Source: a virus (Duplodnaviria; Caudoviricetes). From it: a stretch of DNA of 64,000 bases. How positions within the stretch are numbered: position 1 is the stretch's first letter; the number at the start of each line of letters is the position of its first letter. The translations under genes were made by a program, and so were the position numbers. The notes below the pieces were generated by a model. The model worked only from the letters and a program-made list of their open reading frames with translations, searched no databases and was not told the origin of the DNA. The stretch covers positions 2,120 to 66,119 of the IMG/VR virus record IMGVR_UViG_3300005805_000084. The stretch is one strand, 5' to 3'. Below are positions 1,880-49,600 of this stretch, in pieces.

Positions 1880-2400
1880 CGCCGCCAAGTCGACTGTAGA
1901 GTGTCGGGGGAGAGCCCCGAACGCTGGTCCGGTAAAGGATCGGCTGCTGGGCAACGAGGAGTTTGCCCCGCGTGTTCGTGTTGAGCGGCACGCGTAACCG
2001 AAGCGGTCCGTTGAAACCGTCCAGTGCTGGGGGCGTGCCCCTTGTTCACTCGGCCGAAAGCGAAGCGGATGTCCAGCGGAGTGAAGGTGGAGCCGTACCT
2101 GCGAAGGCTTTTGACGTCGCGTGCTCGTTTGAACCGAGGGCAGTCTGGGGAATTCGCCCCAGCATAGGACCAGCCAAAGGTCATTCGTTCTACCGCACCA
2201 AGGGTTGGCAACCTTGGTCCGGCACTGGTGCTGGAACCTTAATCCAGCGTCACGAAGCAAGTCGTCAGGGACAGGGCCAAGGTCTTCGGATCGGCGTCAC
2301 TGCCAGCCTGTCTAGGTGCTACGCGCCTAGGCTAGTCCCGAGACTTGTGGAGTGGACGGATTCCCCAAGGGCGTTTCCTTGGTGCATCCGCAACACTACA
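1880..2400 (+). ncRNA. Candidate long structured non-coding RNA / early leader
   Basis: No convincing ORF; dense hairpins including C(UUCG)G at 2281-2292 and CCU(GCGA)AGG. Confidence 0.4.
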
Positions 2401-2411
2401 CAAGCATTACC

Positions 2412-2795
2412 ATGAACCTCGAAGTCTCCACCGTCACTGTCGCCAACAAGCCCATTCGTTTCGGATCGAACAAGGCCGGATGCGGCCTCGTTATCGTCAC
2501 CCAGAAGAAGCTTGGCGAGATCACAGGCCTCAAGGGGGCCGCCCTCAAGCGCGCCCACTTTGAGTACCGCCTCGAGGCCGGAAAGGCCTTGAATGCCGGT
2601 CTATCGGCCGGAATGGCATCCGGCGAAATTATCACCAAGAGCGTGGTGCCCACCAAGGGCGGTGGGATTCGTGCGGTCTTCGATCGCGTGGAGTCCCTGA
2701 AGTCTCCCGCAGAGTCGGTGTCCGCCAAGGACAAAGAGATCGCGAGGCTCCAAGCGGAACTCGCCGCACTGCGCGCCACTCAGGCCGCCAAGTGA
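2412..2795 (+). CDS. Hypothetical early protein (MNLEVSTVTV...), C-terminal coiled coil
   Basis: AC-rich leader, strong C/G-ending codon bias. Confidence 0.8.
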   Translation: MNLEVSTVTVANKPIRFGSNKAGCGLVIVTQKKLGEITGLKGAALKRAHFEYRLEAGKALNAGLSAGMASGEIITKSVVPTKGGGIRAVFDRVESLKSPAESVSAKDKEIARLQAELAALRATQAAK

Positions 2796-2822
2796 GCCAA
2801 CAAGAGCCCCGAGTCTCGGGGC

Positions 2823-2883
2823 TTCCTTGTCTCCCCCTATGGCTGGGGGACTGATGAAGGCCCAGCAAGGCCGAAACAAGGAA
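2823..2883 (+). ncRNA. Type III hammerhead ribozyme, predicted cleavage after C2831 (GUC)
   Basis: Stem III ttccttgt/acaaggaa, GUC, stem I tccccc/ggggga, CUGAUGA core, stem II ggcc/ggcc, GAAA; one extra A after the CUGAUGA core. Confidence 0.85.
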
Positions 2884-2891
2884 CACCAGTA

Positions 2892-3296
2892 ATGAATCTC
2901 GGAACACGCAACACGATCAGGTCCAAACTGTCCGCCTGTGCGGCACTCCGCCTCTTGGCGGATGGTGGGTATGGGGACAACAGGTGGCTGGAAACGGCCA
3001 AGGTGCTGGAGACTGAGGCCCACGCCTTGTGGCGCGAGGCTGGCCTCGAGGACTGCCCGACTTGGGAGTTGCTCATCCTGTTGGATGAGCCGCTCTCCAT
3101 TCTCAGGGAGAGACAGCGCGCCTTGAACGTTCTAGTCTCGGACGTAATGGGCCACGCTAGGCCCGAGAAGTACCCAGTGGAATACGTGGAGCGAGAGCTC
3201 TATGGAACGAGCCTAATCGCAACCACCGAAAGGTGGGCGGAGATCAAGGCCCTCGCGGCCGAGGTGCGCGAGCTCGAGGCGGAGCTGGAGGCCTGA
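2892..3296 (+). CDS. Hypothetical early protein
   Basis: 134-aa ORF directly after the ribozyme. Confidence 0.7.
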   Translation: MNLGTRNTIRSKLSACAALRLLADGGYGDNRWLETAKVLETEAHALWREAGLEDCPTWELLILLDEPLSILRERQRALNVLVSDVMGHARPEKYPVEYVERELYGTSLIATTERWAEIKALAAEVRELEAELEA

Positions 3297-3302
3297 TTAC
3301 CA

Positions 3303-3352
3303 CTCCGAAGCCTTCTCCTCAGGGGGAGGCTTCTGGGAGGCGATCATGCCTC
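3303..3352 (+). repeat. Structured intergenic motif copy 1 (CTCCG-11 bp stem-CTGGGAGGCGATCATGCCTC)
   Basis: Flanks identical to copy 2; stem sequence differs but pairing is preserved. Confidence 0.8.
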
Positions 3353-3368
3353 GTTCAACACCACACAC

Positions 3369-3659
3369 ATGAGAACTGCAAACACCACCAAGGCCGTCAG
3401 CGTACCCACCGAGTCCTCCTACGAGGGACACCCCACTCTGGTGCTTCCGAATCCCGACGATCCCACCAAGCCAGGGATCTCCTTCGGAGCGAGGAAGCTC
3501 CGAGCGGTTCTGGCCCACCTCGCCGAGGTGAAGGCCTTCGTCGCCAAGGCTCAGGCCGCGCCCAAGGTCCCCAATGGGGACGTCAATGCGGTGATCGCGT
3601 CCCTGAGGTCCTCCGGCAAGTCCGCCGAGGAGATTCTGGCCACCCTGCTCTCGAAGTGA
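3369..3659 (+). CDS. Hypothetical early protein
   Basis: acacacac leader, typical codon usage. Confidence 0.75.
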   Translation: MRTANTTKAVSVPTESSYEGHPTLVLPNPDDPTKPGISFGARKLRAVLAHLAEVKAFVAKAQAAPKVPNGDVNAVIASLRSSGKSAEEILATLLSK

Positions 3660-3665
3660 TCTTCG

Positions 3666-3716
3666 CTCCGACTCCATCCCTGAAAGGGGGTGGGGTCTGG
3701 GAGGCGATCATGCCTC
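3666..3716 (+). repeat. Structured intergenic motif copy 2 (GAAA-capped stem)
   Basis: See copy 1. Confidence 0.8.
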
Positions 3717-3733
3717 AAACAACACACACCAGT

Positions 3734-4081
3734 ATGAACTACGCAGCACTTCTGTCGGTGCTTATCAGCATCGAATCCAATGGGAATGACCATGCCATCG
3801 GAGATGGCGGAGCGGCCCGTGGGCCATTGCAAATCCACAAGGCCGTGGTCTCCGATGTGAATCGGATCAGCGGGAAGCGGTTCGATTGGGTCCGAATGAC
3901 CAATCGGGCCGAGGCTCGGGAGGTGGCCACCATTTACCTGAAGCACTACGCCACGCCTCAGCGACTTGGGCGTGCCGTTACCCCTCAGGACGCGGCAAGG
4001 ATCTGGAATGGCGGGCCGATGGGCTACAAGTCCAAGGCCACCCTGCCCTATCTGCAGAAGTTCAACGCCAAGCTCAAGTAA
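3734..4081 (+). CDS. Lysozyme-superfamily muramidase (destabilase/i-type or SLT-like)
   Basis: IESNGNDHAIGDGGAARGPLQI and WNGGP motifs; possible alternative start at 3710. Confidence 0.75.
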   Translation: MNYAALLSVLISIESNGNDHAIGDGGAARGPLQIHKAVVSDVNRISGKRFDWVRMTNRAEAREVATIYLKHYATPQRLGRAVTPQDAARIWNGGPMGYKSKATLPYLQKFNAKLK

Positions 4082-5614: not shown

Positions 5615-5620
5615 CATACT

Positions 5621-10634: not shown

Positions 10635-10907
10635 ATGCTATCACCGAAGACACAGCAGGAGGTCAGCGAATGCGTGCGGGAGAAGATGACCAGCAACTTC
10701 GCGGACATGAAGATCCGCATCGAGCCGATGCGCGAGGCGCTCAGGAAGTTCGAGCAGTCGGTCAACGATCGCTCACTGGACGGCATGCATCACAGCTTGG
10801 CCGATCTCTCAAACACATCACTCAACTGCAGGGCTAGGCTCCAGTACATGCGTGGCATCTGGGCCGTCCTCAGAAACGTACGTGACAAGGACCCCATCGA
10901 TGAATGA
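10635..10907 (+). CDS. Hypothetical helical protein
   Basis: 90-aa ORF after operator. Confidence 0.7.
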   Translation: MLSPKTQQEVSECVREKMTSNFADMKIRIEPMREALRKFEQSVNDRSLDGMHHSLADLSNTSLNCRARLQYMRGIWAVLRNVRDKDPIDE

Positions 10908-12174
10908 AGGAGCTTTTCATGCGGCTGTGGGACATCGCGTTGATCTTGCTAGAGATCGCAATCACGCTGCTCACTCTGAGCCTCTTCTCGATCTTCCAGT
11001 GACTCCGATTGCAGGCAGATTCAAACCTGCATCCATCCCGTTTAACTCGGAGCAGCTGGCATCGCTGCTGCCGAAGTACTACGAGATGGACTTCGTCGGT
11101 CTCACCTACAACACCATCGCGTTCAACAAGGAGGCGCTCAACCAGTTCCTCAAGTGGATGCGGAAGGGTGGCTACGAGTCGGTCACAGTCGAGATGCTGC
11201 ATGAGTACATCAAGTTCATGCAGGACCGGCACACCACGATGATGGCAACCAACAGGTGGGGTCGCGTGAAGCGGTTCTTCCTGTGGATGGAGCGGCTTGG
11301 ATACATCGAGCGCAGTCCACATCACGTGGTCAGGAACAGGGTGACTGAGAACATCTCAAGTCACGTGCGACCGATGACTCTGGAGGAATACCTGAAGCTC
11401 AAGCAGGTCTCCGAAGGTCACTGGCTCAACTGGATCTACACGCTGGCTTGGAACAGTGGCATGGCCCTAGTCGACTGCTGCGCGCTGCGCTGGGGAGACA
11501 TCAATATGGACCAGTGCTACATCAGCGTTCGCCGCAAGAAGAGCAAGGCCGCTGCGGTCATTCCATTCTCGCCATCAGACGAGCTTGGGAAGGCGATCGA
11601 GGCTATGGCTCAGGTGAAGCACGATCCGGATGACTTCGTGTGCCCAGAGGCTGGCGGCAGGCTGAGGGATGACACCAGAACCGGCCTGATCAGGAGGCTG
11701 TCACTGAACATGTTCCGCAAGGCGGGCCTGTCCAAGGGCGTGTCGATCCACTCGATGCGCCGCTCCTTCATCACGATGTTGGCCAACTCCAACATGAACA
11801 CAGTGATGGCATCGAAGATCAGCGGACACACCAGCCCGAAGATACTGGCTAGGTATGTGTTCCCAGACCCGAACGTCCTGAGAAAGGGCGTTGCTGAGGC
11901 CAAGGAGAAGTTCGGAATGGACAACTTCGCATACGTGGAGCCGTCCAATGTCCGAGTGAAGGGAAGATCCATAGCTTGGAAGCCCAACAGCCACTACATT
12001 GTGAAGAGCGGCAAGGGGCTGAAGCTTCCTGATGGAACACCCATCACATTTGTTTTCACCTCCGCAGTAGCGGAAGGTAGAAAGGCGGTCGTCACACCCT
12101 GTGACATCGAGATGAACCCTGTGGGAAACCTGCAGATCATCGCCGACATCACAGACGTGAGGCCGTTCGTTTAG
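10900..12174 (+). CDS. XerC/D-like tyrosine recombinase, first catalytic Arg absent, extra C-terminal domain
   Basis: SAM-like core-binding region, NSGMALVDCCALRW, IHSMRR, SGHTSPKILARY; start uncertain. Confidence 0.8.
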   Translation: MNEGAFHAAVGHRVDLARDRNHAAHSEPLLDLPVTPIAGRFKPASIPFNSEQLASLLPKYYEMDFVGLTYNTIAFNKEALNQFLKWMRKGGYESVTVEMLHEYIKFMQDRHTTMMATNRWGRVKRFFLWMERLGYIERSPHHVVRNRVTENISSHVRPMTLEEYLKLKQVSEGHWLNWIYTLAWNSGMALVDCCALRWGDINMDQCYISVRRKKSKAAAVIPFSPSDELGKAIEAMAQVKHDPDDFVCPEAGGRLRDDTRTGLIRRLSLNMFRKAGLSKGVSIHSMRRSFITMLANSNMNTVMASKISGHTSPKILARYVFPDPNVLRKGVAEAKEKFGMDNFAYVEPSNVRVKGRSIAWKPNSHYIVKSGKGLKLPDGTPITFVFTSAVAEGRKAVVTPCDIEMNPVGNLQIIADITDVRPFV

Positions 12175-12766: not shown

Positions 12767-13162
12767 TTGAAGGACTTCATCGGAGAAACGCTCGCGGCAT
12801 TCCCACCGAATCTGATCCGAGTTCTGGCACGAACCGGAAGGGGAGCCGCAGCGAGGAACATGACCCACGACGAGGTGGCTCAGCGTTCCGGCCTCAAGAG
12901 ATCCAAGATCCGCAAGTTGTCCGCGCTTCAGTCATGGGACACGGTCGCCATAGCTGATGCGGACGCCTTCCTGAAGGGCTGCAACGTGACGCTCAGATCC
13001 CTATGGAAGCAGCGGGCATTCCTAAGGCGTAGCCTCGACCCAAGGGTGACATCAACCCCGCTGGCCTACGCCGTGCGCGGGAAGCGGGTCCCAAGGCCGC
13101 CATCTGCAGAGGCTTTGGTGCGCGCAGCTTTGAGCCGCTCCTCCCGCCGCGTGTCAGCCTGA
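12767..13162 (+). CDS. XRE-like HTH protein
   Basis: MTHDEVAQRSGLKRSKIRKL; start uncertain (TTG). Confidence 0.55.
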   Translation: MKDFIGETLAAFPPNLIRVLARTGRGAAARNMTHDEVAQRSGLKRSKIRKLSALQSWDTVAIADADAFLKGCNVTLRSLWKQRAFLRRSLDPRVTSTPLAYAVRGKRVPRPPSAEALVRAALSRSSRRVSA

Positions 13163-16100
13163 GCTTCATCGGCCTGAGCTTGCGCAGCTTGGTACGGATC
13201 GTTCGGATCGCCTTGGGCTTGCGGGTGAGAGCCCTGATCCGACGCATGGCGGTCATTCCACCGCCTCCATCCCGCTCCGCCTTAGGCTTGATGCCGTCGA
13301 CCAGCTTCTGAATCGCAACGTCACCGCGATCAAAGACAGCCCGCTGCTCTGGGCTCATGCGCGAGCGCAGTCCAATCTTCTCGTCCGAAGACAGCATGCG
13401 ACCGAACGCCTTCTGCTCTGGGAACTGGGACTTCAGCGACGCCTTTACCGCAGACCAAGGATCGGCCACGCCGGTGGCAGCCTTCACTTCCGCAGCCTTG
13501 TTCAGCAGCTGCTGAGCACCAGCATTGTCGCCTGCCGCACTGGCAGCGACCGCACGCCGTATCAGAGAGCTGAACTGGGTCGGCTCCATTCCGGCACCGC
13601 CGCCACTGGTCTTGAGTTCTAGGCTTCCCGCATTCCTAGAGGCAACGCGAACCGCATCTGAAACCGCATCGCGAGCAGCAACAGAAGGGATCCGATTGAG
13701 CGCTGGGCTGAGCACCGGAAGCGTTCCACGCACAGCAGATAGCACCGCTCCAGCGTAGTCTCCAGTGGCGGTTGCGTACTTGAGTGATCTCGAAAGCGTC
13801 GAGATTGCACCAAGCTGCGGGCTGAGCTTTGTCAGGTCAGTGAGGTCGGCTCGGTTCTTCTGAGCACCAACCAGACCTGCAGCAATCTCTCCCCAGTAGG
13901 GGACCATTCCGGCAATCGCAACAGCACCAAGCTTGGATATGTTCTTTGATGACGGATCTGAGATGACGTCCCTGAATGTGGTCTGCGAATACGGCCTTCC
14001 AGTAATGATGCCATAGGCAACACCCTTCGCCTCGTTCGCTGGGATTCCAGCCAGCATCAACAGCAGGAGCAGCGCAACGAGTGCTGCGAGTTGAATTGCA
14101 CCAGCAATGACCTTGTCCTTGCGATCTGTGCTGATTGAGGAAATGCCCTCAAGGGTTCCAAGCCAGTTCCCCATCCAGCCAGGGAATCCGATGAGGAACC
14201 GTATCGCCCTTCCGAATCCGCCACGTGTCTTGATGATGTCGGCTCGAGCGGAATCAATGGGAAGGTTGGAAGCTGCCAGACCACGCATCAACACATCTGC
14301 TTCGGCATTCTGATCAGCGATAAGCGGAACCGAGTAGATGTCCTGACCGGATTTGCGGGCCGCTTCGACACGCTTGTGGTAGTCAGCCATCAGGAACTCA
14401 ATGCTTCCAGCAGGAACCAGCATGTCCTTCAGCATGATCAGCTGCTCAGGCGTCCAGCCAGCGTTCTCAAAAGCTTCCTGAGGAGTGATGACATTGTCTG
14501 GGTTGGCCCAGTTGTCCCAGCCAGGGTTGCCTGACTTGGAACGAATCTGCATCAGGCGCTCACCGGCCATGAACATCACAGCCAGATGCTTCTGCAGTGT
14601 CCTCGTGATCTCGGTGTTGGCGAGCTCGTCAGCCTTGGGCTGCATGCTCATCATAAACTCCCGCAGAGAGGCTACCGCTCGATTGGAGAACATCTTGTCG
14701 ATCGCCCTAGACGAGGCGGATTCGACATCTCCAGGCTGACGAACCACGTTGCCGTAGGTTCCCATCTCGGAGATCAGCTTGGCGCTTTCAAATGGGCTGA
14801 CGGTTTCAGGTTCCCATCCACCAAGCTTGGCAATCTGAGCAACACGAGCGTATTCGTCGGAGACCCTGATGAACCTCTCAGCAAAGACACCGAATGCCCT
14901 TCGGTTCTTGCGCATGATTGCAGACAGGGTCGGGTTGGTCGCGATCGCCCTCTCGACAAGACGCAGCACAGGCTTTGTACCAGCAGTCAGGAGCGCGCTC
15001 GCCATCGCCCTAGGATAAGACTTGAAAGACAGGCCTCGAGTCATCGACCTAGCCACAACATCTCCACCAGCTACGCCGAACAGATAGTTCGTGATCGGAA
15101 CCATCGGCGTGGTGAGCAGGAGGATCTTCTGGGCAAGACCGACTTGGCCTAGAAGGCCGCTGTCGTCGTGGACATTGATGCCCTGAACCCGCTGCGTGAA
15201 AGTGTCGCGAAGGGTTTGGACTAGGCTCAGCAGCGTCTCTGCCTTGGATCGATCGATGTAGAACTTGCCGCTCTTGATGTCTGCCTTGAGCGAATCCGGA
15301 TCGGTCCTCATCCGCTCGCCCATGTTGACGATGTACTGCTTCAGAGCGGACTCAACGTCCATCATCTGACGAGCGATCTGAATCAGGGAAGGAATCTGTG
15401 CGGCAACCAGAAGTCCGTTGATCTCTGCGTCAGTGGACAGCGTGTACGAATAGAACACCCCAGGTGCCACCATCTTGCCACGAGGCTTGGTGAACTGGTT
15501 CAGCCCATCCACAACGCTGACGATTGCGGTTTGGGATTTATCGTTTCCACCGCTGATGGAACCGTTCGAGCTCTCTTCGACGTATTTGCGAGCTTCCTGC
15601 TGGCTGACGAGCTTCTCTTGGTCGATCGCGATCGAGAACTTGCGGACCTCATCGAGCAAGCTGCGCTTGATATCGGACTCTATGTCGGACATCGACGCAG
15701 CTGCAGGACTCATGTCGGCGATCTGACTGACAAGCTCGTCGGTCGTGGTCGGTAGCGAAGATGGGTTCTTTCGCCACCGTATCGCCAGCTGCTCGTAGAT
15801 CTTAGCGTAGTTACTGGTGTTCTCGAAGTCGCTATTGGTCTCAGCAACGTACCGCCTCAGGACCTTGTTGAACGCAGTTGGATCATCGAAGATGGCCTCG
15901 ATAGCCTTCAGCTGAGCGTCCTCATCCTTGATGCTGTTGACCGCGTCTAGGACCTTCTGAACGTAGAAGCTCGGCGATCCGGCGTAGATCTCCTTAAGTA
16001 ATCTGCGAGGGGTTGTGGCAGCTCCTGCGGCAAACGCTCTCCGGAGTCGATTGCCTTCCCTGATGAGCGTCGGGAAGTACTTGACGACTCCGCCAACAAA

Positions 16101-19100
16101 ATCACCGCTTGTGACCGCGTACACCTGATCCGAGAAGCGTGCCATCAATTCGATGGCAGCAAGGTCCTCCTTGGTCACGACATGCCCGAACGGAGTGGCT
16201 TCCCCAACCTTGATCGCTGGATCTCTGTCGTTCTGACGGGAGTTGAGCAGCTCATTGGCAACCTCTTCGCGCCAGACCATTGGATCCATCCCAGGATGAG
16301 ACTGGATAGCACGATACTGAGCGATCTTGAGAGCCTGAGCTCCAAAGAACTTATTGGCTTTGACTGCGGACAGCTTCTTCTCGAGCGAGTCTTGGATGGC
16401 GTTGAGCAGAGACAACCTCTTGCCCATAGGCCCAGGAATCATTCGAGCCAGAGCCATCCGATTCACCAGAGCTTTGACTCCAGGGAATCTCCTACCAAAG
16501 ACGAATGGGTTCAGCCATCCAGCGGTAAGCGCAGGAGACGCAGTCTGGGCACCGTAGTTCCGCAGCCTCTCGCTGAGCTGCTGAAGAGACTCAAGCTCCA
16601 CTGGATCAACAGCAACAGTCCCTGAGGCCAGCTGCTGAAGGCGTGCCTGCACTGCGGACACAAGCTTGTAGAAGTCTATGCCAGCCTTTGTGTCGGCAGC
16701 GACATCGAGCTGAGGATTGAAGAAGTATTCCTGACCATCAACAACCCAGCGCTCGCCACGTCCACGTGGATCAACTGTTCCAAGGATCTCTGGGTTGGAG
16801 TAGCCAAGGTTCTTGGTAGCGGTCGCGTACGAATCCTTGAACTCGGGAGATGCAACGACGCTCTCGAGCAGAGCGATCTGCTCAAGCGTAGCTGCGAACT
16901 CGTTGTCGATCCGTTCGATCTCAAGGTTCAAGGCCTTGAGGCGCTCCAACTCAGCCTCCTTTGTGGACCTCTCCCTATAGTATCGCTTTGCGAAATCCTC
17001 TATCGACACCTTCTTGGACTTCGCAGCAGGAGAAGTGGATGCCAGCGCGAAGTAGTCCTCGAAGGCTTTCCTGTCTGCCGCAGCGAGATCGAGATTCGCC
17101 TTGTAGTCCTTGATCGCCCCAAGCGAAGAGGCGAGACCACGATAGGACTCAAGAACTGAACGCTTACCAGAAGCCGGAGGAGTCAGAAGCTTTGCGATCG
17201 TCTCTGGAAGGACCTTGCCGACGAGCACGTTGTTATCGACGACGTACTTGATAATCGCGTCGTTGTTGCCAGCAGCCTTGGATGCAGCGATGACCGAATC
17301 AGGAACCGCATCGGAGATGATGTCTATCGCCTTTGAGACGTCCGCATTCTGCTTCTTGATGTAGAGGGCCGCGTTGGTTGCGTTGACCTTGGCCTGCTCC
17401 AGAGCCGCATCGACTCCAGCGAATGTCCGCAGCTCGTCTCGAATGTACTTGGAGTAGTCCTTAAGCAGTGAGCGCTGTGCGTTGTCAGCAACCTGAGCCG
17501 CAGACTTCGCCGCAACCGCTTCGGCAAGCATTGAGATAGTGCGAGGCGATGTCATCTGCTCTCGCAGTGCCTCGAGCTTGGCATTTTTCTTGGCGAGAAT
17601 GTCTAGGATGTTCTTGTTCTGATTCCACACCGCATAGCTGAAGATACCCTTGTTCGGATCGTTTGGATTGATCGACGACAGCGGAATGGATGTCGTTGAG
17701 ATTTCGTTCAGTGACTTCAGCCAGCGCATCCCACGCTCAGCATCTTTAGAGAGACCAGCAAGCTGTGCTCCGAGCCCTGCGGGAAGGATCCCGCGCTGCA
17801 CCGATGCCGACTGCTCAATGGTTGTGACCTGCGACTGCTCAAGTCCTGGCCTGCGAGTTTCGGATTCGACCTGAGCTCGCGTCTTGAAAGGAGTCTTCGA
17901 GTATCTGATGTCCGCTGACTGTAGATTGAACCGCTGGCTCAGAGGGATGACGTTGCCGGAGTCGTCATAGGTAACTGGATCAGCCAGCTTGGCCTGTCTG
18001 GATGCTTTAATGAGAATCTCAGGAGCCCCATACGAAAATCCTCCAGCACCATCGGCAATTACAGCATCTGCATTCGACCTGCTTGCCAACTCGTCAAACG
18101 CTTCACCCTGTTCAACAGAACCATAGTCTTCGGAGAGCTCCTGAGAAACATCACGAAGAGCCCTTTGAACATCAGCGGTTCTAGCGTCGAGGAGGTTTTC
18201 TGCCTTCAGGTAGAACCTGCGAGGCGTTCCGTACCTCCTCGCGTAACCGATGTCTGGAGTGAAATAGAAACCCCTGCCCAAATTGCCGCCGTCATATTCG
18301 TCGTATTCAAGTTCCTCTCCCCTGCTTTCAGCCTGCTCGGCGAGTGATAAGAATCTGTTAAACGCAGTCTTTGAGGCGTGATAACCAGACAATGCATACC
18401 CAGCAAGGCGGGCAGCCTCATCTACGAGGCGCTGCGCGGCACCGATGTCTCCAGCTCTAACAGCAGCCAAATACTCCGCATCAAGCGACTGTATTGACTG
18501 AGTTGCCGACATTGCGGAAAGCGTCTCGACCACCTCGATCCCATTGACGGTGTATGTCGTCGACGGGCGGGACACACGCGCATGAACCTTGGCCACCGCT
18601 TTGGCAGCGATGTACTCAGCGGCGAGTCGAGTCAGCCGAACACCCTTGCTGTTGGCCCACGCAAGCACGCGACCGGTGATGCGCTGGAACCAGTTGCGTC
18701 CCCTCCAAGCCTTGGCCAGAAGCTCGACCTTGCGGGCGTCCTCTTCGCGAGAGACTGCGGCAGGATCGTACTCAAGTCGTGCAACCTCAGCAGCGATCTC
18801 CGCAGCCTCATCTGGCGTGACCTGTGAGATCTCAGCGGCAAGCTCTCCATTCGCGTTCGCGGCTTCGGACTCCTCGTGAAGCAGGACCCTGTCGATGTCC
18901 GCTGCGGAGGAGACCTTTGCGGAGTTGATCTCGATCCTAACGATTCGACCGTCCGCTTTGCTGATGAAGATGCGGCCATCGAAGTTCGCGTTGGGGTCGT
19001 TCACCACACGAACCAATCCGCCAGCTTGAATGCCGAACCGAGAGAGAAGACGATCCTCAACAGCAGCAACAGTCAGTCCGGTTGCTGGGCCGACATTGCG

Positions 19101-22100
19101 GCTGAGGAACTCAAACGGCTCCTCTGAATTGCTTTCATACTGATCTGCGATGTAGCCAAGGCCATCAGTACCAGTCTTAGAGTAGACGTCCCACGCCTTT
19201 TCAAACCCTTCATTGAAGAGCTGCTGCCTTATGTCTGGATTTAATGAGGCCCGCCCAAGAGCCAGCCTGATGTCTTTTTCCTCAACCTCAGAAAGCGCCC
19301 TGTCGAACACCTGCCTGAAGACGACCTTGTTCACAGGCCTTCCTAAGTTGTTGCGCTCGGCAGCTGCGGCGTAGTTGGTCAGCTTCTCAGAAAGGCTGCT
19401 ATTGAGATTGAATGCATCGCCCCTTCCTCCAATAGAAGCACCAACATCAATGCCACCAACTGTGGAAGGAACTCCAGTTTCAGACATCGGGCTTCTCTCG
19501 AAAGCGCCAACACCAATGCCACCGAGTGCCTCCGTCTCTCCTCCATCGTCGGCCTGCCTAGTCGGAGCGGCAGTCTTTGAAAGCGGATCAGTGGCTGCCC
19601 ATCCGATGTAGTCCAGTATCAGTTGGCTTTGTGCCTTTTTGACAAGCAAGTTTGCGCTCTGTTCTGGATTCTGAAGTCGCCTTACAATCGATTGAAGGAC
19701 CCTCTTGGTCCACATCTTGGAGATCTTCGTGTCGTCTATTAGTAGACCTGGATAGTTCCTGCTGAGAGTTATCGCGATCTGCTTCGGCCCTTCCAAGATT
19801 TGGAATGAAGCGCTTAGGAAAATCCTTTCCTCTCTTGTGAGGTCGTTCTCAAAAGCCTGCCGCTCCGCCTTTTCCTCTTCGGACTCAGAACCAGTTCTGG
19901 TCCTGTTTAAGAGGCTCATGTATCGCTGATACTTGGGAGAGCTCTCGAATGCCTGCAGCGATGCCAGAGCTCCTTCTTGAGCTGGGGTAAGCTTGTCCGA
20001 GGTTTCGCTCTCCTGCTCCTCAGCAACAGGAGCTTCGGTCTTCGTGAATGGGTTCTTGCCCTTCTTGAGCACCACCGTCTCGCCTCGCTTCTTGCCATCG
20101 GCATTGACGCGTTCAACCCGAACTCCGCCGTCAGGAAGCGAAGTAAATGTGAGGCGATCTCCCAGCGAGATGCCATTTGCCTCAGCGTTAGTGACTTTGG
20201 TTTTGCGCTCTGCGGACTTCTTGGTTTCGGACTCAGCACCAACCACCTGAAGCTGAATGGTGACGCTGCCATCTTGGTTGATGCTGGCAGGTCCAGCGAT
20301 CTTGGTTTTACCAAGAGGCTTTCCTTCCTTGAGCGGGCCGAACACCGAAGATTTCAGCTGAACAAAGTCGCCATCCTGAATGGTGGATTCGTCTGCGTAG
20401 ACAATGGTTGTCTGCGCCACAGGAGCAGGAGCTGCTGGAGCTGGGGCTGCGGCGGGAGTCTTCGGTGCGGGTGGCGCGAAAACGGTTCTCGAGACATAAG
20501 CCTCTGGGGCAGCCGCAGCGCCCTGCATATTGATGTTCAACGAGGTAAGAAGCTCGTTGAATGCGTCCGAGGTATCTTCCCTTGATCCAGCCTCCTTCTG
20601 CACGCTGAGCACCTCGTCGTGTTCAGCTTTGGTGATATAGCCCAGCTGAAGAGCCTTCTTCGTTAGACTCTTTAGACGAGCCGGAGACTCAAGGTTGTTT
20701 GCCGCATCGTCTACTTGGTCGATGAAGCTGATGCGAGCGATGTCTTCGGGCTTCTCGGCAGCGATCTTGGAAGGAGCTGGAGCTGCGGATGGCTCAGGTG
20801 TCGAAACTGGCGGCTGCGGCGCGGCTCTCCGCATGTTGATTTCAAGAGAAGACTGGAGCTCGCTAAAAGCGTCTCCTGCGTCTTCCTTGGTCCCCATGTC
20901 TTTCTGGACCCTGAGAATCTCGTCGTGGTCCGCTTTGGTAATGTAGCCAAGGTTGAGCGCCTTCTTCGTGAGTGCTCTGAGCCTTGACGGGGACTCGAGA
21001 TTAGTGACCGCATCGTCTACATCCTCCGAGAATGCAATGCGCTTGGCGTCTGGCTGCGGAGCTGGTTGTACGGCTGGTGCTGCTGGCTGGACTACACCTT
21101 CCGCCCTTCCTGTGACATCTGCTGGAACTTGTCCTTCCCGTACTTCCGCCTGCCGATCCACGCGGCCAGCGCCTTGGGCTCCTTGACCCCCTTCTTGGAC
21201 AGCTGGTTGACGAGCTTCTGGAACTTGGACTGTGGCTTCATTGATCTGTTGGAGTTGGCGTTGTTCTTGTGCGCGAAGATCTCGGAGGCGCTGGGCGACC
21301 TCTGGGCTCATTCCTAGGGTCGGCCTAGGCTCTGGAGCTATCGGCCTCGTGGCGGCCCCGTAGCGGCTCGCCTGAGCGGCTTCCAGTCTGCCTAGAGGAA
21401 CGCTGGCCTGCTCAGCTTGGAGCTGGGCCATAATGCGCGCTTCATCTTCGGCCATCCGGACTCTGGCTGCAGCCTCTTCCTCCTCAAGCTGGGCCATAAT
21501 GCGTGCCTCCTCCTGAGGGTTGGCAACGATACGTCCAGCAGCTTCTGCTCTGCGGGCTTCGGCTTCCGCCCTATTGCGTTCAGCGACCATTCGCCGCACC
21601 GCAGCGCGACGCTCCTCCTCCTGCTGGCTCAGGAGGACTCCAGTGCCAAAGCCTTCAGGCGGGTACTGGCCAATGGCTCGCTCTTCAGGGGCAACCTCGG
21701 CCGGTTGTGGAACCTCTCTGGTGAGCCCCTCTTGCTCAAGGCGTCGGCGTTCAGCGTTACTGAGGCGAGTTCCGGAAGGGCCAGGAATACGCTGACGATT
21801 CAGCTGCCCAAGCAGGATCGCCTCGTCGATTGGGCTGGTGATGCCTTCGGTGGAAATGACATCGCCAATTCCAGACGTGGTGACAGGACGCTCGGAGACT
21901 GGGGTTCCGACCCCAGCATATGTCTGACCGATTCCACCAGCAGGAGTAACCCCCTGAACTGGCTGCATCTGCTGTGACTCAGGAACGAGCAGGTTGGATC
22001 GATCAACAGACCTAGCACCAAGACGACCAAAGTAATCCTGAAGCTCCTGCTCAAGACGAGCCTCTCGGCGAGCATCTGCAAGTCTTCCGACACCAGACTG

Positions 22101-23240
22101 TGTACCGCCTATTGCGCCGCCAATGAAACTACCAGTGAGTCCAGCCTCAATGACCCTAGTGGCCGCCTCTTGTGCGGTTGGAAGACCACCTCCACCAGCT
22201 CCGACAGAGAGCATCGAAACACCCTCCTGCCCAGCTTCTGTGAGGCCTTCCGAAAGAACGCCCTTTCCAACATCTCTAGCAAATCCACTGACACCGCGTT
22301 GCGCATATTGCTGAGCGAGCTCCTGAGCAATGTCACGCGCTTCACGTTGCACAGCACCAGCGGCCCCAAGCACAGGTGGTACAGCTTCTCTGGCTGCACC
22401 TAGCGCTATGCGACGAGCTGTACTAGCTGGGACAGCGCCGAATGTCTCTAGCGCACCAGCAAGAAGACCTCCGCCGATACCTGCCGCACGCTGAAGAGGC
22501 CCTGTTTGTCCTGTAGCATCAACAATTTCTCCGTAGATAGCACCGCCCTCTTGAGGTGCAGTGGTGATAATGGGAGCAGCAGCTCCCGTCAGCGTCTTGC
22601 CAGCTCCAAGAAGTCGGAGAGCTCCTGCGGTCGGGGCAGTGGCGAGGATCTGAGGAATCTGCTGAATTACCTGCGCTCCAAGAAACCCAGGAATATCACC
22701 TGCGGTCTCGATTTCTGAAATCGACTTCGGAGCCGTGGTTGGAATGTCAGCGAGCCCAGACACCTCACTTCCGGCTTCGCGAAGGCGGTTCGACAAACCT
22801 CCAGGGATCGCGGATGCGGCCAGTCCAGCCAAGCCACCAACAACTCCTGGCCCAAACACAGACCCAAGCCTAGCCAACTCAGCGGGACTTTCAGGAGTCA
22901 GCGCGGAAGCGAACTGCAGCGTGCCTCCGGCCATTCGAGCGATCCCAGAACCAAGCTGGCGACCAAACTCAGTTCTCCCAAGGAATGGAATTTCCTTATC
23001 CGACTCGTATGCCTCCAGCGTCTCAAGTCTGTTCTGTGCGGCACGCCCCTCTTCCTTGAGCTGGGCCATCTGGTCCTGAAGACCAGCCCTCTTATTGAGG
23101 TAAGTGATGATGTCAGCATCGCTGGCACCATCAGCCCTTGCTAGTGCAGCATTGAAGCCATAGGTCTTCCCAAGGTGGTCAGCGATCTCCGCATCGCTGA
23201 ATCCATCCTCCCTAGCCAGAGCCCAGTTGAATTGAGGCAT
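12993..23240 (-). CDS. Giant internal virion/ejection polyvalent protein (3415 aa) with ADP-ribosyltransferase and degenerate zincin-like domains
   Basis: Last gene of the ejection block; GYHAS...GRGFYFT...YARRYG...PEIL at about 17900-18500; LLHEE at about 18870. Confidence 0.8.
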   Translation of the reverse strand: MPQFNWALAREDGFSDAEIADHLGKTYGFNAALARADGASDADIITYLNKRAGLQDQMAQLKEEGRAAQNRLETLEAYESDKEIPFLGRTEFGRQLGSGIARMAGGTLQFASALTPESPAELARLGSVFGPGVVGGLAGLAASAIPGGLSNRLREAGSEVSGLADIPTTAPKSISEIETAGDIPGFLGAQVIQQIPQILATAPTAGALRLLGAGKTLTGAAAPIITTAPQEGGAIYGEIVDATGQTGPLQRAAGIGGGLLAGALETFGAVPASTARRIALGAAREAVPPVLGAAGAVQREARDIAQELAQQYAQRGVSGFARDVGKGVLSEGLTEAGQEGVSMLSVGAGGGGLPTAQEAATRVIEAGLTGSFIGGAIGGTQSGVGRLADARREARLEQELQDYFGRLGARSVDRSNLLVPESQQMQPVQGVTPAGGIGQTYAGVGTPVSERPVTTSGIGDVISTEGITSPIDEAILLGQLNRQRIPGPSGTRLSNAERRRLEQEGLTREVPQPAEVAPEERAIGQYPPEGFGTGVLLSQQEEERRAAVRRMVAERNRAEAEARRAEAAGRIVANPQEEARIMAQLEEEEAAARVRMAEDEARIMAQLQAEQASVPLGRLEAAQASRYGAATRPIAPEPRPTLGMSPEVAQRLRDLRAQEQRQLQQINEATVQVPEARQPAVQEGGQGAQGAGRVDRQAEVREGQVPADVTGRAEGVVQPAAPAVQPAPQPDAKRIAFSEDVDDAVTNLESPSRLRALTKKALNLGYITKADHDEILRVQKDMGTKEDAGDAFSELQSSLEINMRRAAPQPPVSTPEPSAAPAPSKIAAEKPEDIARISFIDQVDDAANNLESPARLKSLTKKALQLGYITKAEHDEVLSVQKEAGSREDTSDAFNELLTSLNINMQGAAAAPEAYVSRTVFAPPAPKTPAAAPAPAAPAPVAQTTIVYADESTIQDGDFVQLKSSVFGPLKEGKPLGKTKIAGPASINQDGSVTIQLQVVGAESETKKSAERKTKVTNAEANGISLGDRLTFTSLPDGGVRVERVNADGKKRGETVVLKKGKNPFTKTEAPVAEEQESETSDKLTPAQEGALASLQAFESSPKYQRYMSLLNRTRTGSESEEEKAERQAFENDLTREERIFLSASFQILEGPKQIAITLSRNYPGLLIDDTKISKMWTKRVLQSIVRRLQNPEQSANLLVKKAQSQLILDYIGWAATDPLSKTAAPTRQADDGGETEALGGIGVGAFERSPMSETGVPSTVGGIDVGASIGGRGDAFNLNSSLSEKLTNYAAAAERNNLGRPVNKVVFRQVFDRALSEVEEKDIRLALGRASLNPDIRQQLFNEGFEKAWDVYSKTGTDGLGYIADQYESNSEEPFEFLSRNVGPATGLTVAAVEDRLLSRFGIQAGGLVRVVNDPNANFDGRIFISKADGRIVRIEINSAKVSSAADIDRVLLHEESEAANANGELAAEISQVTPDEAAEIAAEVARLEYDPAAVSREEDARKVELLAKAWRGRNWFQRITGRVLAWANSKGVRLTRLAAEYIAAKAVAKVHARVSRPSTTYTVNGIEVVETLSAMSATQSIQSLDAEYLAAVRAGDIGAAQRLVDEAARLAGYALSGYHASKTAFNRFLSLAEQAESRGEELEYDEYDGGNLGRGFYFTPDIGYARRYGTPRRFYLKAENLLDARTADVQRALRDVSQELSEDYGSVEQGEAFDELASRSNADAVIADGAGGFSYGAPEILIKASRQAKLADPVTYDDSGNVIPLSQRFNLQSADIRYSKTPFKTRAQVESETRRPGLEQSQVTTIEQSASVQRGILPAGLGAQLAGLSKDAERGMRWLKSLNEISTTSIPLSSINPNDPNKGIFSYAVWNQNKNILDILAKKNAKLEALREQMTSPRTISMLAEAVAAKSAAQVADNAQRSLLKDYSKYIRDELRTFAGVDAALEQAKVNATNAALYIKKQNADVSKAIDIISDAVPDSVIAASKAAGNNDAIIKYVVDNNVLVGKVLPETIAKLLTPPASGKRSVLESYRGLASSLGAIKDYKANLDLAAADRKAFEDYFALASTSPAAKSKKVSIEDFAKRYYRERSTKEAELERLKALNLEIERIDNEFAATLEQIALLESVVASPEFKDSYATATKNLGYSNPEILGTVDPRGRGERWVVDGQEYFFNPQLDVAADTKAGIDFYKLVSAVQARLQQLASGTVAVDPVELESLQQLSERLRNYGAQTASPALTAGWLNPFVFGRRFPGVKALVNRMALARMIPGPMGKRLSLLNAIQDSLEKKLSAVKANKFFGAQALKIAQYRAIQSHPGMDPMVWREEVANELLNSRQNDRDPAIKVGEATPFGHVVTKEDLAAIELMARFSDQVYAVTSGDFVGGVVKYFPTLIREGNRLRRAFAAGAATTPRRLLKEIYAGSPSFYVQKVLDAVNSIKDEDAQLKAIEAIFDDPTAFNKVLRRYVAETNSDFENTSNYAKIYEQLAIRWRKNPSSLPTTTDELVSQIADMSPAAASMSDIESDIKRSLLDEVRKFSIAIDQEKLVSQQEARKYVEESSNGSISGGNDKSQTAIVSVVDGLNQFTKPRGKMVAPGVFYSYTLSTDAEINGLLVAAQIPSLIQIARQMMDVESALKQYIVNMGERMRTDPDSLKADIKSGKFYIDRSKAETLLSLVQTLRDTFTQRVQGINVHDDSGLLGQVGLAQKILLLTTPMVPITNYLFGVAGGDVVARSMTRGLSFKSYPRAMASALLTAGTKPVLRLVERAIATNPTLSAIMRKNRRAFGVFAERFIRVSDEYARVAQIAKLGGWEPETVSPFESAKLISEMGTYGNVVRQPGDVESASSRAIDKMFSNRAVASLREFMMSMQPKADELANTEITRTLQKHLAVMFMAGERLMQIRSKSGNPGWDNWANPDNVITPQEAFENAGWTPEQLIMLKDMLVPAGSIEFLMADYHKRVEAARKSGQDIYSVPLIADQNAEADVLMRGLAASNLPIDSARADIIKTRGGFGRAIRFLIGFPGWMGNWLGTLEGISSISTDRKDKVIAGAIQLAALVALLLLLMLAGIPANEAKGVAYGIITGRPYSQTTFRDVISDPSSKNISKLGAVAIAGMVPYWGEIAAGLVGAQKNRADLTDLTKLSPQLGAISTLSRSLKYATATGDYAGAVLSAVRGTLPVLSPALNRIPSVAARDAVSDAVRVASRNAGSLELKTSGGGAGMEPTQFSSLIRRAVAASAAGDNAGAQQLLNKAAEVKAATGVADPWSAVKASLKSQFPEQKAFGRMLSSDEKIGLRSRMSPEQRAVFDRGDVAIQKLVDGIKPKAERDGGGGMTAMRRIRALTRKPKAIRTIRTKLRKLRPMKLRLTRGGRSGSKLRAPKPLQMAALGPASRARRRPAGLMSPLGRGYALGMPAASIGI

Positions 23241-46636: not shown

Positions 46637-49600
46637 ATGCCAGTCCCATTTCTCAACAGCGTCAACCTCAACAAGAACGAGGTTCAGAACTTCAAGGTCT
46701 TCAACATCGGGAATGATCCGACCCCGACGCTGACCGCCAACGATGGAGGATACTTCTGGTTCGATAGCACCACTACGCCAACGCCTGTTCTTCGCCTGAA
46801 GTATTGGACCGGCACCGAAGCTCGCACGTTGCTCGACAGTGCCTCGACCACCATCGTCGCTGCGGATCTCTCTGGTGGTGCTGCTGGTAGCCTTCCGTAT
46901 CAGGTCGGCGCTGGAAACACAGACTTCCTTGGCATTGGCGCTGCGAATCAGGTTCTGACGGTTAAAACCGATCTATCCGGTCCTCAATGGACTAGTCAGA
47001 GCAACCTATCTGTCGGCACTGCGACGTGGTTGGCCGGTGGCGCTCAGGGTGACATTCCGGTGCAGTCTTCGGCTGGTCAGACTGGCTTTCTAAACATCGG
47101 CGCTGCCGGTCGCATCCTGACCTCGGACGGCAGCACCCCTGTCTGGTCCGCCACGATTCCTTCCAGCTCTGTCTCTGGCCTAGCCGCCTCGGCTACGACT
47201 GACACGACCAACGCTGCCAACATCACCAGCGGCCTGCTTCCTCTGGCTCGGTTGGAGTTGGCTGACGGCAGCTTCTACGTCGGCAATGGCTCGAATGTCC
47301 CAACGGCGACCGCCAAGAACCTCATACCCATTAGCGGATTTGGTGCGGCCACTGCGGCTGTCGCGATGGGAAACCAGAAGATCACTGGCCTCGCGGATCC
47401 TGTGGATGCCACCGACGCTGCCAATCGCAAGTACGTTGATGAGGTGGCGCAGGGGCTGGACGTCAAGGCGAGCTGTCTTGTTGCAACGATTGCCAACATT
47501 GACCTAAGCGCACCTGGTTCATCCATAGACGGCATTTCTTTGGCCCCTTCTAATCGTGTTCTGGTCAAGGATCAGACTGATAAGAAACAGAACGGCATCT
47601 ACGTCTGGAATGGCGCTGCGGTCGCAATGACCCGCTCGCTGGATGCGGACACCGTGGCCAAGCTGGTTGGCGCATTCACCTTCGTCGAGCAGGGCACCAA
47701 CGCAGATTCCGGATGGGTCTGTCAGGTTGACAGCGGAACCATTGGGTCGGTTGACATTGAGTGGACCAAGTTCAGCCAAGCTGGCTCCTACACCGCAGGC
47801 AACGGCATGGTGCTGTCGGGTGGGGTGTTCCACTTCGCCAAGTCGACCGCCTACACAGAGGGTCAGATTCCGTTCTGCTCAAACACCCCAACCGCGAACA
47901 GGATCGGCTTCTCCTCGAACCTTAGCTGGGACAACTCCAACAACCGCCTAGGCATTGGGACGGCGACGCCTCGGGTTTCATTGGATGTCGCATCTGGAGA
48001 AATTTACAGCAGCGGCCAGATCACTTGGGGCGGCAGTAGCCCAACGGCAAATCAAGGATTCCTGTCCTATACTGGCGGAAATGCCGCAATAGGATCTGCC
48101 GGAGCAACTGCGCTGCTGCTTTACACCAACTCATCCGAACGCCTCCGCATCGCCTCCGACGGCGTATGCACATGGAGCAACGTTGGTGGGGTGGCTGGCA
48201 CCGCAATGACCCTGAATGCGACGGGGTTGGGGGTGGGGGCTACGCCGTCCGCTGCGATCCATTCGGCAAAAGCTGCTGCCGCGAATCCCACTGGAGGCTC
48301 TGCCGCTGGTGCTGGCCTCTACGTCTCCAATGTCAATCCACTCTACGGAATGATGTTTGGTGTGAATGGAGGTGGCGTCGGATGGATTCAGCAGCAACGG
48401 AGTGACACCAACACCCAATACGATCTCTCGCTTCAGCCTCTCGGCGGCAACGTCGGCATCGGGACCGCGACGCCGCTCTACACATTAGACGTCGCTGGAG
48501 ACACGCGGATTGGCGGCACCGGCCTTGCTTATGGACGGCTGACGGTGAACAAATCGACTAGTGGTTCGACACTGAACCTCAGTCTCGCTGGGACATCTGG
48601 CTACACGGAGCTGATGTTCACGAACTACAACGACAACACCGGAGCTTCTGGTTGGACATCCTTCATTCGTAGCAACACCAACGCGGCATCCAACTACGCC
48701 TCGGATCTGGTGTTCGGTACATCGAGCCCAACTTTAGGCGCTCCGGTCCCGAGGATGACGCTGGATCACAACGGAAACCTTGGGTTGGGAGTGACGCCTA
48801 GTGCTTGGGGATCTTCATACAAGGCTATCCAAATTGGTCAAGTTGGGTCGATTAACTATAAAAACTTCACCATTGCGATTGGAGGAAACTACTACAACGA
48901 CGGAACGAATGATGTCACTCTGATCAACGGTTATCGCTCAAAATACGAGCAGAACCTAAGCAATGGCACACACATTTGGTACCAAGCTGGCATTGGCACT
49001 GGCAACGTAAGCTGGAACCAGTCAATGACCCTCGACGCCTCGGGGAATCTGGGCATCGGGACGGCGTCGCCATCAAATAGAGTTGAAATTCGAGGCGCAG
49101 GTCAAGCAACGGCTTCTGTTGCGGATTCCGGAGATGGATCGGCACTGATGCTGTCGGATACCGGATTTGGTTCAAACGCTGGCGGCCTGCTGCTCTTCGG
49201 ATATAACGTCCAGAACGGATACAAAGCTCAAGTCGGCATTAAATTGGTCGGTATTGATGGATTTAATAACGGACGTGGAGACATGGTGTTTGTCACCAGA
49301 ACCTCCACTTCTGCGACGACTTTGACCGAAAAGATGCGGCTGGACTCCTCCGGCAACCTTGGCATCGGGACGGCGTCGCCGAATACGAATCTCACAATAG
49401 GAAATGATGGAAATGGAAGCGCCACAGTAAAACTTGGATTCTCGACCGCATATGCCGAACGAGGTTCTGTAAGTATGGCAGGGAATACCGGCGAGTTGAG
49501 GCTGACGGCAGGTTTTAGCGGATACGGTGGTTTTACTACTTTTTACACGAACGGCTCGTTGGCAGCCACGCTCTCGTCTGACGGCAACCTTGGGTTGGGC

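Follow-up and report, generated by a model that had tools for sequence, protein, structure and literature searches.

The early mRNA of phage T7 carries a set of RNase III signals (R0.3, R0.5, R1, R1.1 and R1.3) in which two stems of approximately 10 bp each, an upper and a lower one, flank a small internal loop. Repeated stem-loop modules at the boundaries of small early genes are furthermore present as PeSL cassettes in T4-type phages and as start-associated sequences in the Cluster K mycobacteriophages. Hammerhead, twister and other self-cleaving RNAs are also placed by phages between small genes; why this is so is an open question, and a role of these ribozymes in the processing of polycistronic transcripts is proposed but undemonstrated (PMC6765202). 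The ribozymes pistol, hatchet and twister-sister were themselves discovered by searching near known ribozymes (PMC4604425). Here we describe an element of uncultivated phages that belongs to a known kind, i.e., an intercistronic structured RNA of phage operons with alternative pairing of three segments, and that appears to be new in combining a stop codon embedded in a helix with two folds supported by covariation. The best explanation of the data is that each copy is a cis-acting element of an early polycistronic mRNA and a member of a large, uncatalogued family.

Similar to the T7 signals, the motif forms repeated intercistronic hairpins in an early polycistronic mRNA, the stems of which vary while the architecture is kept; unlike them, it carries a stop codon in its lower stem, can adopt a second fold containing an additional hairpin (P3) and has a conserved apex with a GNRA loop and a U-G pair. 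As is the case for hammerhead and twister ribozymes (RF00008, RF00163, RF02684), it is placed between a stop codon and a point approximately 20–45 nt 5′ of the next ATG, in the same or in syntenic operons, but it matches no ribozyme model at E-values up to 10, lacks a conserved catalytic core and is, in its ground state, just a long, simple hairpin. RAGATH motifs such as RAGATH-5 (RF02685), found near twister- and hammerhead-associated genes, are likewise structured RNAs recurring between small phage genes; in contrast to these, the motif has an embedded stop codon and two exclusive folds, is matched by no RAGATH model of Rfam and mostly occurs in carriers that have no ribozyme nearby. With attenuators and translational-coupling hairpins it shares the competition of three segments (1:2 versus 2:3), in which a ribosome in the upstream frame would decide, although the motif has no terminator U tract and the next start is unmasked in both folds. 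Like the PeSL and Cluster K modules, it is associated with shuffling of gene cassettes, as seen from a hybrid copy in locus L038; however, those modules are promoters or ribosome-binding sites that act at the level of DNA or of Shine-Dalgarno pairing, whereas the motif is defined by RNA pairing and a stop codon.

The sequence analysed, hereafter the window, is a stretch of 64,000 nt representing bases 2120–66119 of a phage record (IMGVR_UViG_3300005805_000084) that is complete at 66,119 bp and has direct terminal repeats; coordinates refer to the window unless a locus is named. In its first 12 kb the genes lie on the + strand. Genes of this phage are preceded by C/A-rich leaders, and Shine-Dalgarno-like words stand 5′ of 18 of the 67 likely genes, the background being 17%. 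The region of interest comprises a 127-aa gene (2412–2795), a spacer with a hammerhead-like element, a 134-aa gene (2892–3296), copy 1 of the motif, a 96-aa gene (3369–3659), copy 2 of the motif and a lysozyme-like gene (most likely 3734–4081), all on the + strand. Compared with window 2400–3740, the relative L038/L008 has neither the 127-aa, the 134-aa nor the 96-aa gene and contains one hybrid motif copy.

Several further features of the genome were recorded. The sequence CTAGGTGT-NNN-ACACC, which forms a small hairpin, occurs three times on the + strand, at 5619, 5951 and 60876, each time approximately 10–14 nt 5′ of an ATG, and it may serve as a promoter of the phage, as an operator or as a leader element of another kind. 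An ORF of 3415 aa on the − strand (12993–23240) has no PHROG match; its size recalls that of the virion RNA polymerases of N4-like phages, to which no similarity was found. An integrase-like gene (10852–12174, +; PHROG 1, E 2e-32) is present in this genome with direct terminal repeats, and an ORF of 1539 aa (46637–51256) contains several diverged direct repeats of 28–51 nt at 47941–50917 (+), and it probably encodes a repetitive tail-fibre-like protein.

The motif occurs in two copies in the window, both on the + strand, at 3294–3352 and 3657–3716. The original prediction had described a duplicated arrangement of CTCCG, a stem and 20 conserved nucleotides, and this layout was recovered as exact repeats: CTCCG stands just 5′ of each stem (3303–3307 and 3666–3670), and the 20-mer CTGGGAGGCGATCATGCCTC is found exactly twice in the window and in the whole genome, on the + strand at 3333–3352 and 3697–3716, no such repeat being expected from 100 shuffles; extra copies with up to three mismatches were found neither in the window nor in the whole genome. 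The element had been taken to begin at 3303 and 3666, and the embedded stop codon had been missed; the true start of the element lies 9 nt further upstream, at the stop codons 3294–3296 and 3657–3659. In copy 1, the 5′ arm (3294–3306) consists of the UGA stop codon of the 2892–3296 gene and the following 10 nt and is, as covariation of the lower stem indicates, the 5′ strand of that stem in the fold designated A. It is followed by the upper stem P1 (3307–3333; 12 bp including the closing G-C pair, with the loop UCA at 3319–3321) and by a central segment (3334–3346; U, GGGAGGC, GAUCA), which pairs with the 5′ arm in fold A or, via 3337–3341, with a 3′ arm in fold B. The resulting hairpin P3 of fold B (3337–3352) is made of GAGGC at 3337–3341, the loop GAUCAU and GCCUC at 3348–3352, and an unstructured C/A-rich leader runs from 3353 to 3371, including the ATG (3369) of the 96-aa gene. 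Copy 2 is built accordingly, with a 5′ arm (3657–3669) comprising the UGA stop codon of the 96-aa gene plus 10 nt, P1 of 12 bp (3670–3697) with a GAAA tetraloop at 3682–3685, the central segment common to both folds (3698–3710), P3 (3701–3716) and a C/A-rich leader with the likely true ATG (3734) of the lysozyme-like gene, which extends to 4081 (3717–3736). The GAAA loop that had been proposed is thus correct for copy 2, but not for copy 1.

The P1 stems of both copies contain 11 bp plus the closing G-C pair and include two and three G-U pairs, respectively, in agreement with the proposal that such pairs favour the + strand. Indeed, the + strand RNA folds considerably better than shuffled sequences (z of −4.1 for copy 1 and −3.45 for copy 2), and the − strand does not (z of −1.1 and −1.0). 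The signal is significant on the + strand alone, and therefore the feature acts at the RNA level; the motif is a real folded RNA element between phage genes. This bears on the possibility that it is mainly a DNA-level feature, such as a recombination boundary repeat for gene cassettes or a promoter. Such a role would fit the contig L038/L008, which lacks the 96-aa gene and whose only copy of the motif is a hybrid, its 5′ part coming from one allele and its leader from the other; this is what recombination between two copies would yield, and it looks as if gene cassettes were shuffled in this way. The compensatory changes described below, the z-scores confined to the + strand, the strict strand bias and the conserved G-U pairs, which would be C-A mismatches on the opposite strand, all point to RNA and render a DNA-level role hardly credible, and recombination looks like a by-product. 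A hairpin promoter of the N4 type was also considered and rejected, as the 3415-aa ORF has no PHROG match and, on the template strand, each stem would have C-A mismatches in place of its two to three G-U pairs.

Exact-pattern scans of viral and metagenome collections detected the motif in no more than four or five contigs of very close phages. In these, UGAUY stands 5′ of each copy, AAG can take the place of the internal ATG, and GAGGC/GCCUC can be replaced by GAGAC/GUCUC or by GAGGC/GUCUC. The stem had been suggested to be fully covarying; this was too strong, since in seven close copies 5 of its 12 pairs are invariant and 6 show double changes. The search for covarying homologues that had been suggested was successful: a first covariance model built from seven copies revealed diverged copies in phages with a lysozyme that is 43–47% identical, a second covariance model revealed more, and a pattern derived from those led to 68 further viral loci. 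Altogether there are 143 covariance-model matches, of which 99 are distinct, in 75 phage loci. Each locus contains one to three copies, always on one strand, which is the strand of the genes, and spaced by 357–1203 nt, i.e., one gene apart. Genuine copies are also present on two contigs assigned by binning to bacterial genomes, one to an Actinomycetes MAG and one to a Caulobacter MAG; together with one weak match to a cyanophage-family Pfam entry nearby, these are mutually conflicting and unreliable hints at the host. In one metatranscriptome run (X1), in which 5% of the sampled words were present, two short contigs of a relative were obtained, which lie inside coding regions; the motif was covered by none.

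No Rfam family matches the motif at the gathering threshold in the window, in 10 loci or in a further 137 kb. Even at E-values of up to 10, no family of Rfam 15, the ribozyme and RAGATH models included, matches it in the three regions searched (window 2700–3800, L008:2200–3100 and L015:380–1650), in agreement with the earlier failure to fit it to a known ribozyme consensus; the same search did detect Hammerhead_3 in L008 with 45.4 bits. The family, with 99 distinct copies so far, is thus absent from Rfam 15, and a limited literature search found no description of it.

Comparison of the copies shows that fold A is an irregular hairpin of approximately 55 nt, in which a small internal loop separates the lower stem (about 10 bp) from P1 (10–13 bp). 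In the lower stem, RAUCA is the partner of bases 1–5, which comprise the stop codon and two further bases; beyond a frequent mismatch, another five bases pair with the G-rich segment, and the internal loop above is 2×2 or 1×1 and variable. In fold B, P1 is retained and the G-rich segment takes a partner further 3′, forming P3 as a hairpin of 4–5 bp. Because the search model contained no pairing for the lower stem, the alignment is free of bias towards it. Among the 99 distinct copies, the lower-stem pair 10:59 is G-C in 77, A-U in 15 and C-G in 7 and is unpaired in none; pair 11:58 is C-G in 69, U-A in 16, U-G in 7 and A-U in 2, pair 9:60 is C-G in 76 and G-C in 15, and pair 8:61 is C-G in 96. 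Compensatory exchanges are equally found in P3, where 59:87 is C-G (71), U-A (15) or G-C (7), 60:86 is G-C (74), C-G (14) or A-U (7) and 62:84 is realised by six types of pair. Columns that take part in both folds covary in three ways: columns 10/59/87 are G/C/G (71 copies), A/U/A (15) or C/G/C (7), and columns 9/60/86 are C/G/C (73) or G/C/G (14). If the partner columns are slid by 1–3 positions, the covariation signal is lost in every test. On this comparative evidence, the central segment covaries with both of its partners, and two mutually exclusive folds are each kept by compensatory change. The suggestion of two exclusive pairings of the conserved 3′ part was therefore well founded, both pairings being real and both covarying.

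Free folding favours fold A over fold B in 97 of the 99 copies, the difference being 6.9 kcal/mol on average and 2.6 and 3.1 kcal/mol for the two copies of the window; nearly equal energies of the two folds, which had been considered as well, were due to a sub-optimal register. As fold A is more stable, fold B is expected only if the 5′ arm is occupied or removed. We also considered an H-type pseudoknot that would combine the stop-codon helix with P3. In most copies a single nucleotide would have to cross the 5-bp stem, and the middle part of the lower stem uses some of the same bases as P3, and for these reasons the folds are treated as alternatives.

The position of the stop codon is strict, with 97 of the 99 distinct copies opening on one (94 UGA, 3 UAA). 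In 94 of these copies the stop codon closes an upstream ORF of at least 40 codons, the chance of being in frame being approximately one third, and the 20-residue C-terminal stretches of the upstream proteins comprise 75 distinct sequences. Two of the three copies starting with UAA have AAUUA instead of AAUCA opposite the stop codon; AAUUA is, however, also frequent beside UGA, where it forms a G-U pair, so that this exchange lends weak support to a pairing of the stop codon. Going by the established ribosome footprint, a terminating ribosome would occupy roughly the 13 nt of the 5′ arm and halt just before P1. Termination at the embedded codon would accordingly be expected to flip fold A to fold B, and the strict embedding suggests that ribosome traffic also controls the fold.

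Therefore, the main rival to the processing model favoured below is a switch actuated by translation termination without any cleavage, in which the terminating ribosome would convert the long hairpin to P1 plus P3. Its output could be initiation, re-initiation or insulation of the next gene, or a spacer that is nuclease-resistant whatever the ribosome traffic. In favour of this explanation are the exact placement of the stop codon where the lower stem begins (97 of 99 copies), with its compensating changes, the distance of approximately 13 nt from stop codon to P1, which would correspond to the coverage by the terminating ribosome, the selection of both folds and the tight spacing of P3 to the next start: an ATG opening a frame of at least 40 codons follows P3 after 9–37 nt (median 20, mostly 16–22). 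An output mechanism is not visible, however, in the accessibility of that start. The modelled cost of opening the region from −15 to +12 of the next start is 2.6 kcal/mol in the free RNA, 2.85 kcal/mol with the 5′ arm blocked and 2.56 kcal/mol with both arms blocked, with no consistent direction. In this model the start is equally accessible in both folds, which argues that the element does not gate translation by masking the next start. We thus regard a switch without cleavage as unlikely, ahead of the protein-binding site discussed further below.

Other forms of control at the gene junction appear improbable. A U run after P1 or P3 is present in no copy, P1 being followed by YUGGGAG or YRGCGG and P3 by the C/A-rich leader, and an intrinsic (Rho-independent) terminator is improbable as neither hairpin has a U run 3′ of it. 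There is likewise no expression platform of the riboswitch type, i.e., neither a terminator nor masking of a ribosome-binding site. A readthrough or frameshift signal is contradicted by second in-frame stop codons in most copies, which in copy 2, L009 and L038 lie inside or just after the element, and a conserved slippery heptamer is absent. At copy 1, the frame past the stop codon is open and continues in frame to the next ATG: the UGA that ends the 134-aa gene and the ATG that opens the 96-aa gene share a reading frame, the intervening 75 nt (within 3294–3371) being free of stop codons. The same link exists in relatives with a stem shorter by 3 nt and is absent from the other copies; it is probably a coincidence. 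The original prediction had moreover pointed to a buried GGGAGG-N5-ATG. As a Shine-Dalgarno start this is not borne out, since AAG replaces ATG in the L028 copy 1, L038 and L099 alleles, distant copies have GCGGG instead of GGGAG and no ATG, the ATG of window copy 1 opens 7 codons only, and Shine-Dalgarno use in this phage is little. The GGAGG-C-GAUC of the window is nearly complementary to the 3′ tail of 16S rRNA; mimicry of this tail is nevertheless rejected, as the sequence is conserved neither in the A-allele nor in distant copies. Likewise, the idea of a decoy, according to which P3 keeps the freed G-rich strand off the next start, gains no support from the opening-cost model.

The neighbourhood of the motif raises the question of self-cleavage. 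The spacer before the 134-aa gene contains a type III hammerhead-like element (2825–2881, +), which has an extra A between CUGAUGA and stem II and is unreported by Rfam even at E-values of up to 10. Its hammerhead-like core is kept in relatives, with compensatory changes in stem I, and L008 has a canonical hammerhead (Hammerhead_3, 45.4 bits versus a family threshold of 48.5). An alternative hairpin that would gate the neighbouring hammerhead was rejected, being neither conserved nor the minimum-energy fold in a longer context. The loci L006 and L007 represent more distant phages that have a lysozyme homologue and one upstream gene in common with the window, and both contain Twister-P5 ribozymes (L006:2700–2756, 64.8 bits; L007:2905–2957, 59.7 bits). 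The one in L007 lies 44 nt 5′ of the lysozyme homologue, which is the slot of motif copy 2 in the window, and together with the hammerhead in the preceding spacer this bears out the view of the motif as a positional analogue of a ribozyme. Cores resembling type I hammerheads were also seen in L006 (at approximately 1630) and L007 (1924–1974), directly after stop codons, and score weakly in Rfam (19.9 bits). This hammerhead and twister neighbourhood is present in the lineage of the window and in L006 and L007, but in 137 kb of distant motif carriers no known ribozyme was found, which limits the slot argument to the window's own lineage.

The motif could accordingly be a self-cleaving ribozyme of a new class, for which fold B might be the only active form. 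It stands where L007 has its twister and adjoins the hammerhead spacer, its size of 55–65 nt is suitable, no known family matches it, and the discovery of pistol, hatchet and twister-sister by the same kind of neighbourhood search counts for this reading. On the other hand, the known small ribozymes retain sets of unpaired nucleotides that do not vary; pistol, for instance, has 10 highly conserved nucleotides (PMC4604425). The near-invariant positions of the 99 distinct copies of the motif belong to the stop codon or to helices of one of the two folds, so that almost every conserved position is paired in one of the folds and there is no invariant unpaired core; the internal loop is just 2×2 and variable. 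Moreover, the ground state is a plain long hairpin that is approximately 7 kcal/mol more stable, and the distant carriers have no ribozymes nearby. The earlier suggestion of a possible ribozyme is therefore, above all for want of a conserved unpaired core, most improbable. A related possibility is a ribosome-actuated device, in which termination at the embedded UGA would flip the RNA to P1 plus P3 and thereby create the active self-cleaving or catalytic form. We give this proposal very little credence as well; if it were true, the message would be cut only after the upstream gene had been translated.

The apex of P1 suggests a different partner. P1 varies little in length (mostly 10 bp). In approximately 90% of copies it ends in a GNRA tetraloop on a closing G-C or C-G pair, and in 93 of 99 it keeps a U-G wobble two pairs below the closing pair; this combination suggests recognition by a protein. 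The element might thus be the binding site of a phage or host RNA-binding protein at the top of P1, acting in antitermination in a nut-like manner or as a regulator of translation or stability. The conservation of the apex in sequence as well as in pairing (GNRA, closing G-C, U-G in 93 of 99) speaks for such a site, and the boxB hairpin of phage lambda also presents a GNRA-like loop. Nonetheless, there is no boxA-like element, the copies stand at successive gene junctions rather than once after a promoter, the loop of window copy 1 is UCA, and both the second fold and the embedded stop codon would be left unexplained, which makes a protein-binding site decidedly unlikely.

We tentatively favour the processing model, in which the element would be a signal for processing and stability of the mRNA, by analogy to the RNase III sites of T7. 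The motif has the layout of such sites, namely, between the cistrons of a polycistronic phage mRNA, two stems of approximately 10 bp each with an internal loop between them. From the structure and its relation to the genes, both of which were observed, we infer every functional step as follows. A double-strand-specific nuclease of the host or the phage would cut the long hairpin in or near the internal loop. A ribosome terminating at the embedded UGA would melt the lower stem, but not the upper one, and flip the RNA to fold B. After the cut, the stable P1 would form the 3′ end of the upstream message and P3 would cap the start of the downstream one, which would explain selection on both folds, and the mRNA segment of each gene would thereby obtain its own stability. 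A protein nuclease would thus perform here what hammerhead and twister ribozymes do in neighbouring or equivalent spacers.

The processing model would account for a large family with all of its members on the gene strand, in one to three copies per locus that are one gene apart, for the covariation of the lower stem, of P3 and of the three-way columns together with the greater stability of fold A in 97 of 99 copies, and for the beginning of 97 of 99 copies at a stop codon, 94 of which close an ORF of at least 40 codons. It is likewise in line with the near-constant length of P1 with its U-G pair and GNRA apex, with the equal accessibility of the next start in both folds and with the equivalence of slots to the Twister-P5 ribozyme of L007 and to the hammerhead in the preceding spacer of the window and its relatives. 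However, this slot equivalence applies to the lineage of the window, the distant carriers being free of ribozymes in 137 kb, and an RNase III site needs no stop codon exactly at the first base of its helix. The strict embedding of the stop codon hints at a function linked to translation, which the processing model explains loosely.

The findings describe a widespread and well-supported RNA family that occupies the same slot as self-cleaving RNAs, and its embedded stop codon and two folds make it easy to test. It provides a defined system in which to ask whether intercistronic phage elements cut, stabilise or insulate the message and whether translation termination controls this step. Even if the element should turn out to be no more than a common nuclease site, adding this family, which Rfam lacks, would improve the annotation of phages.
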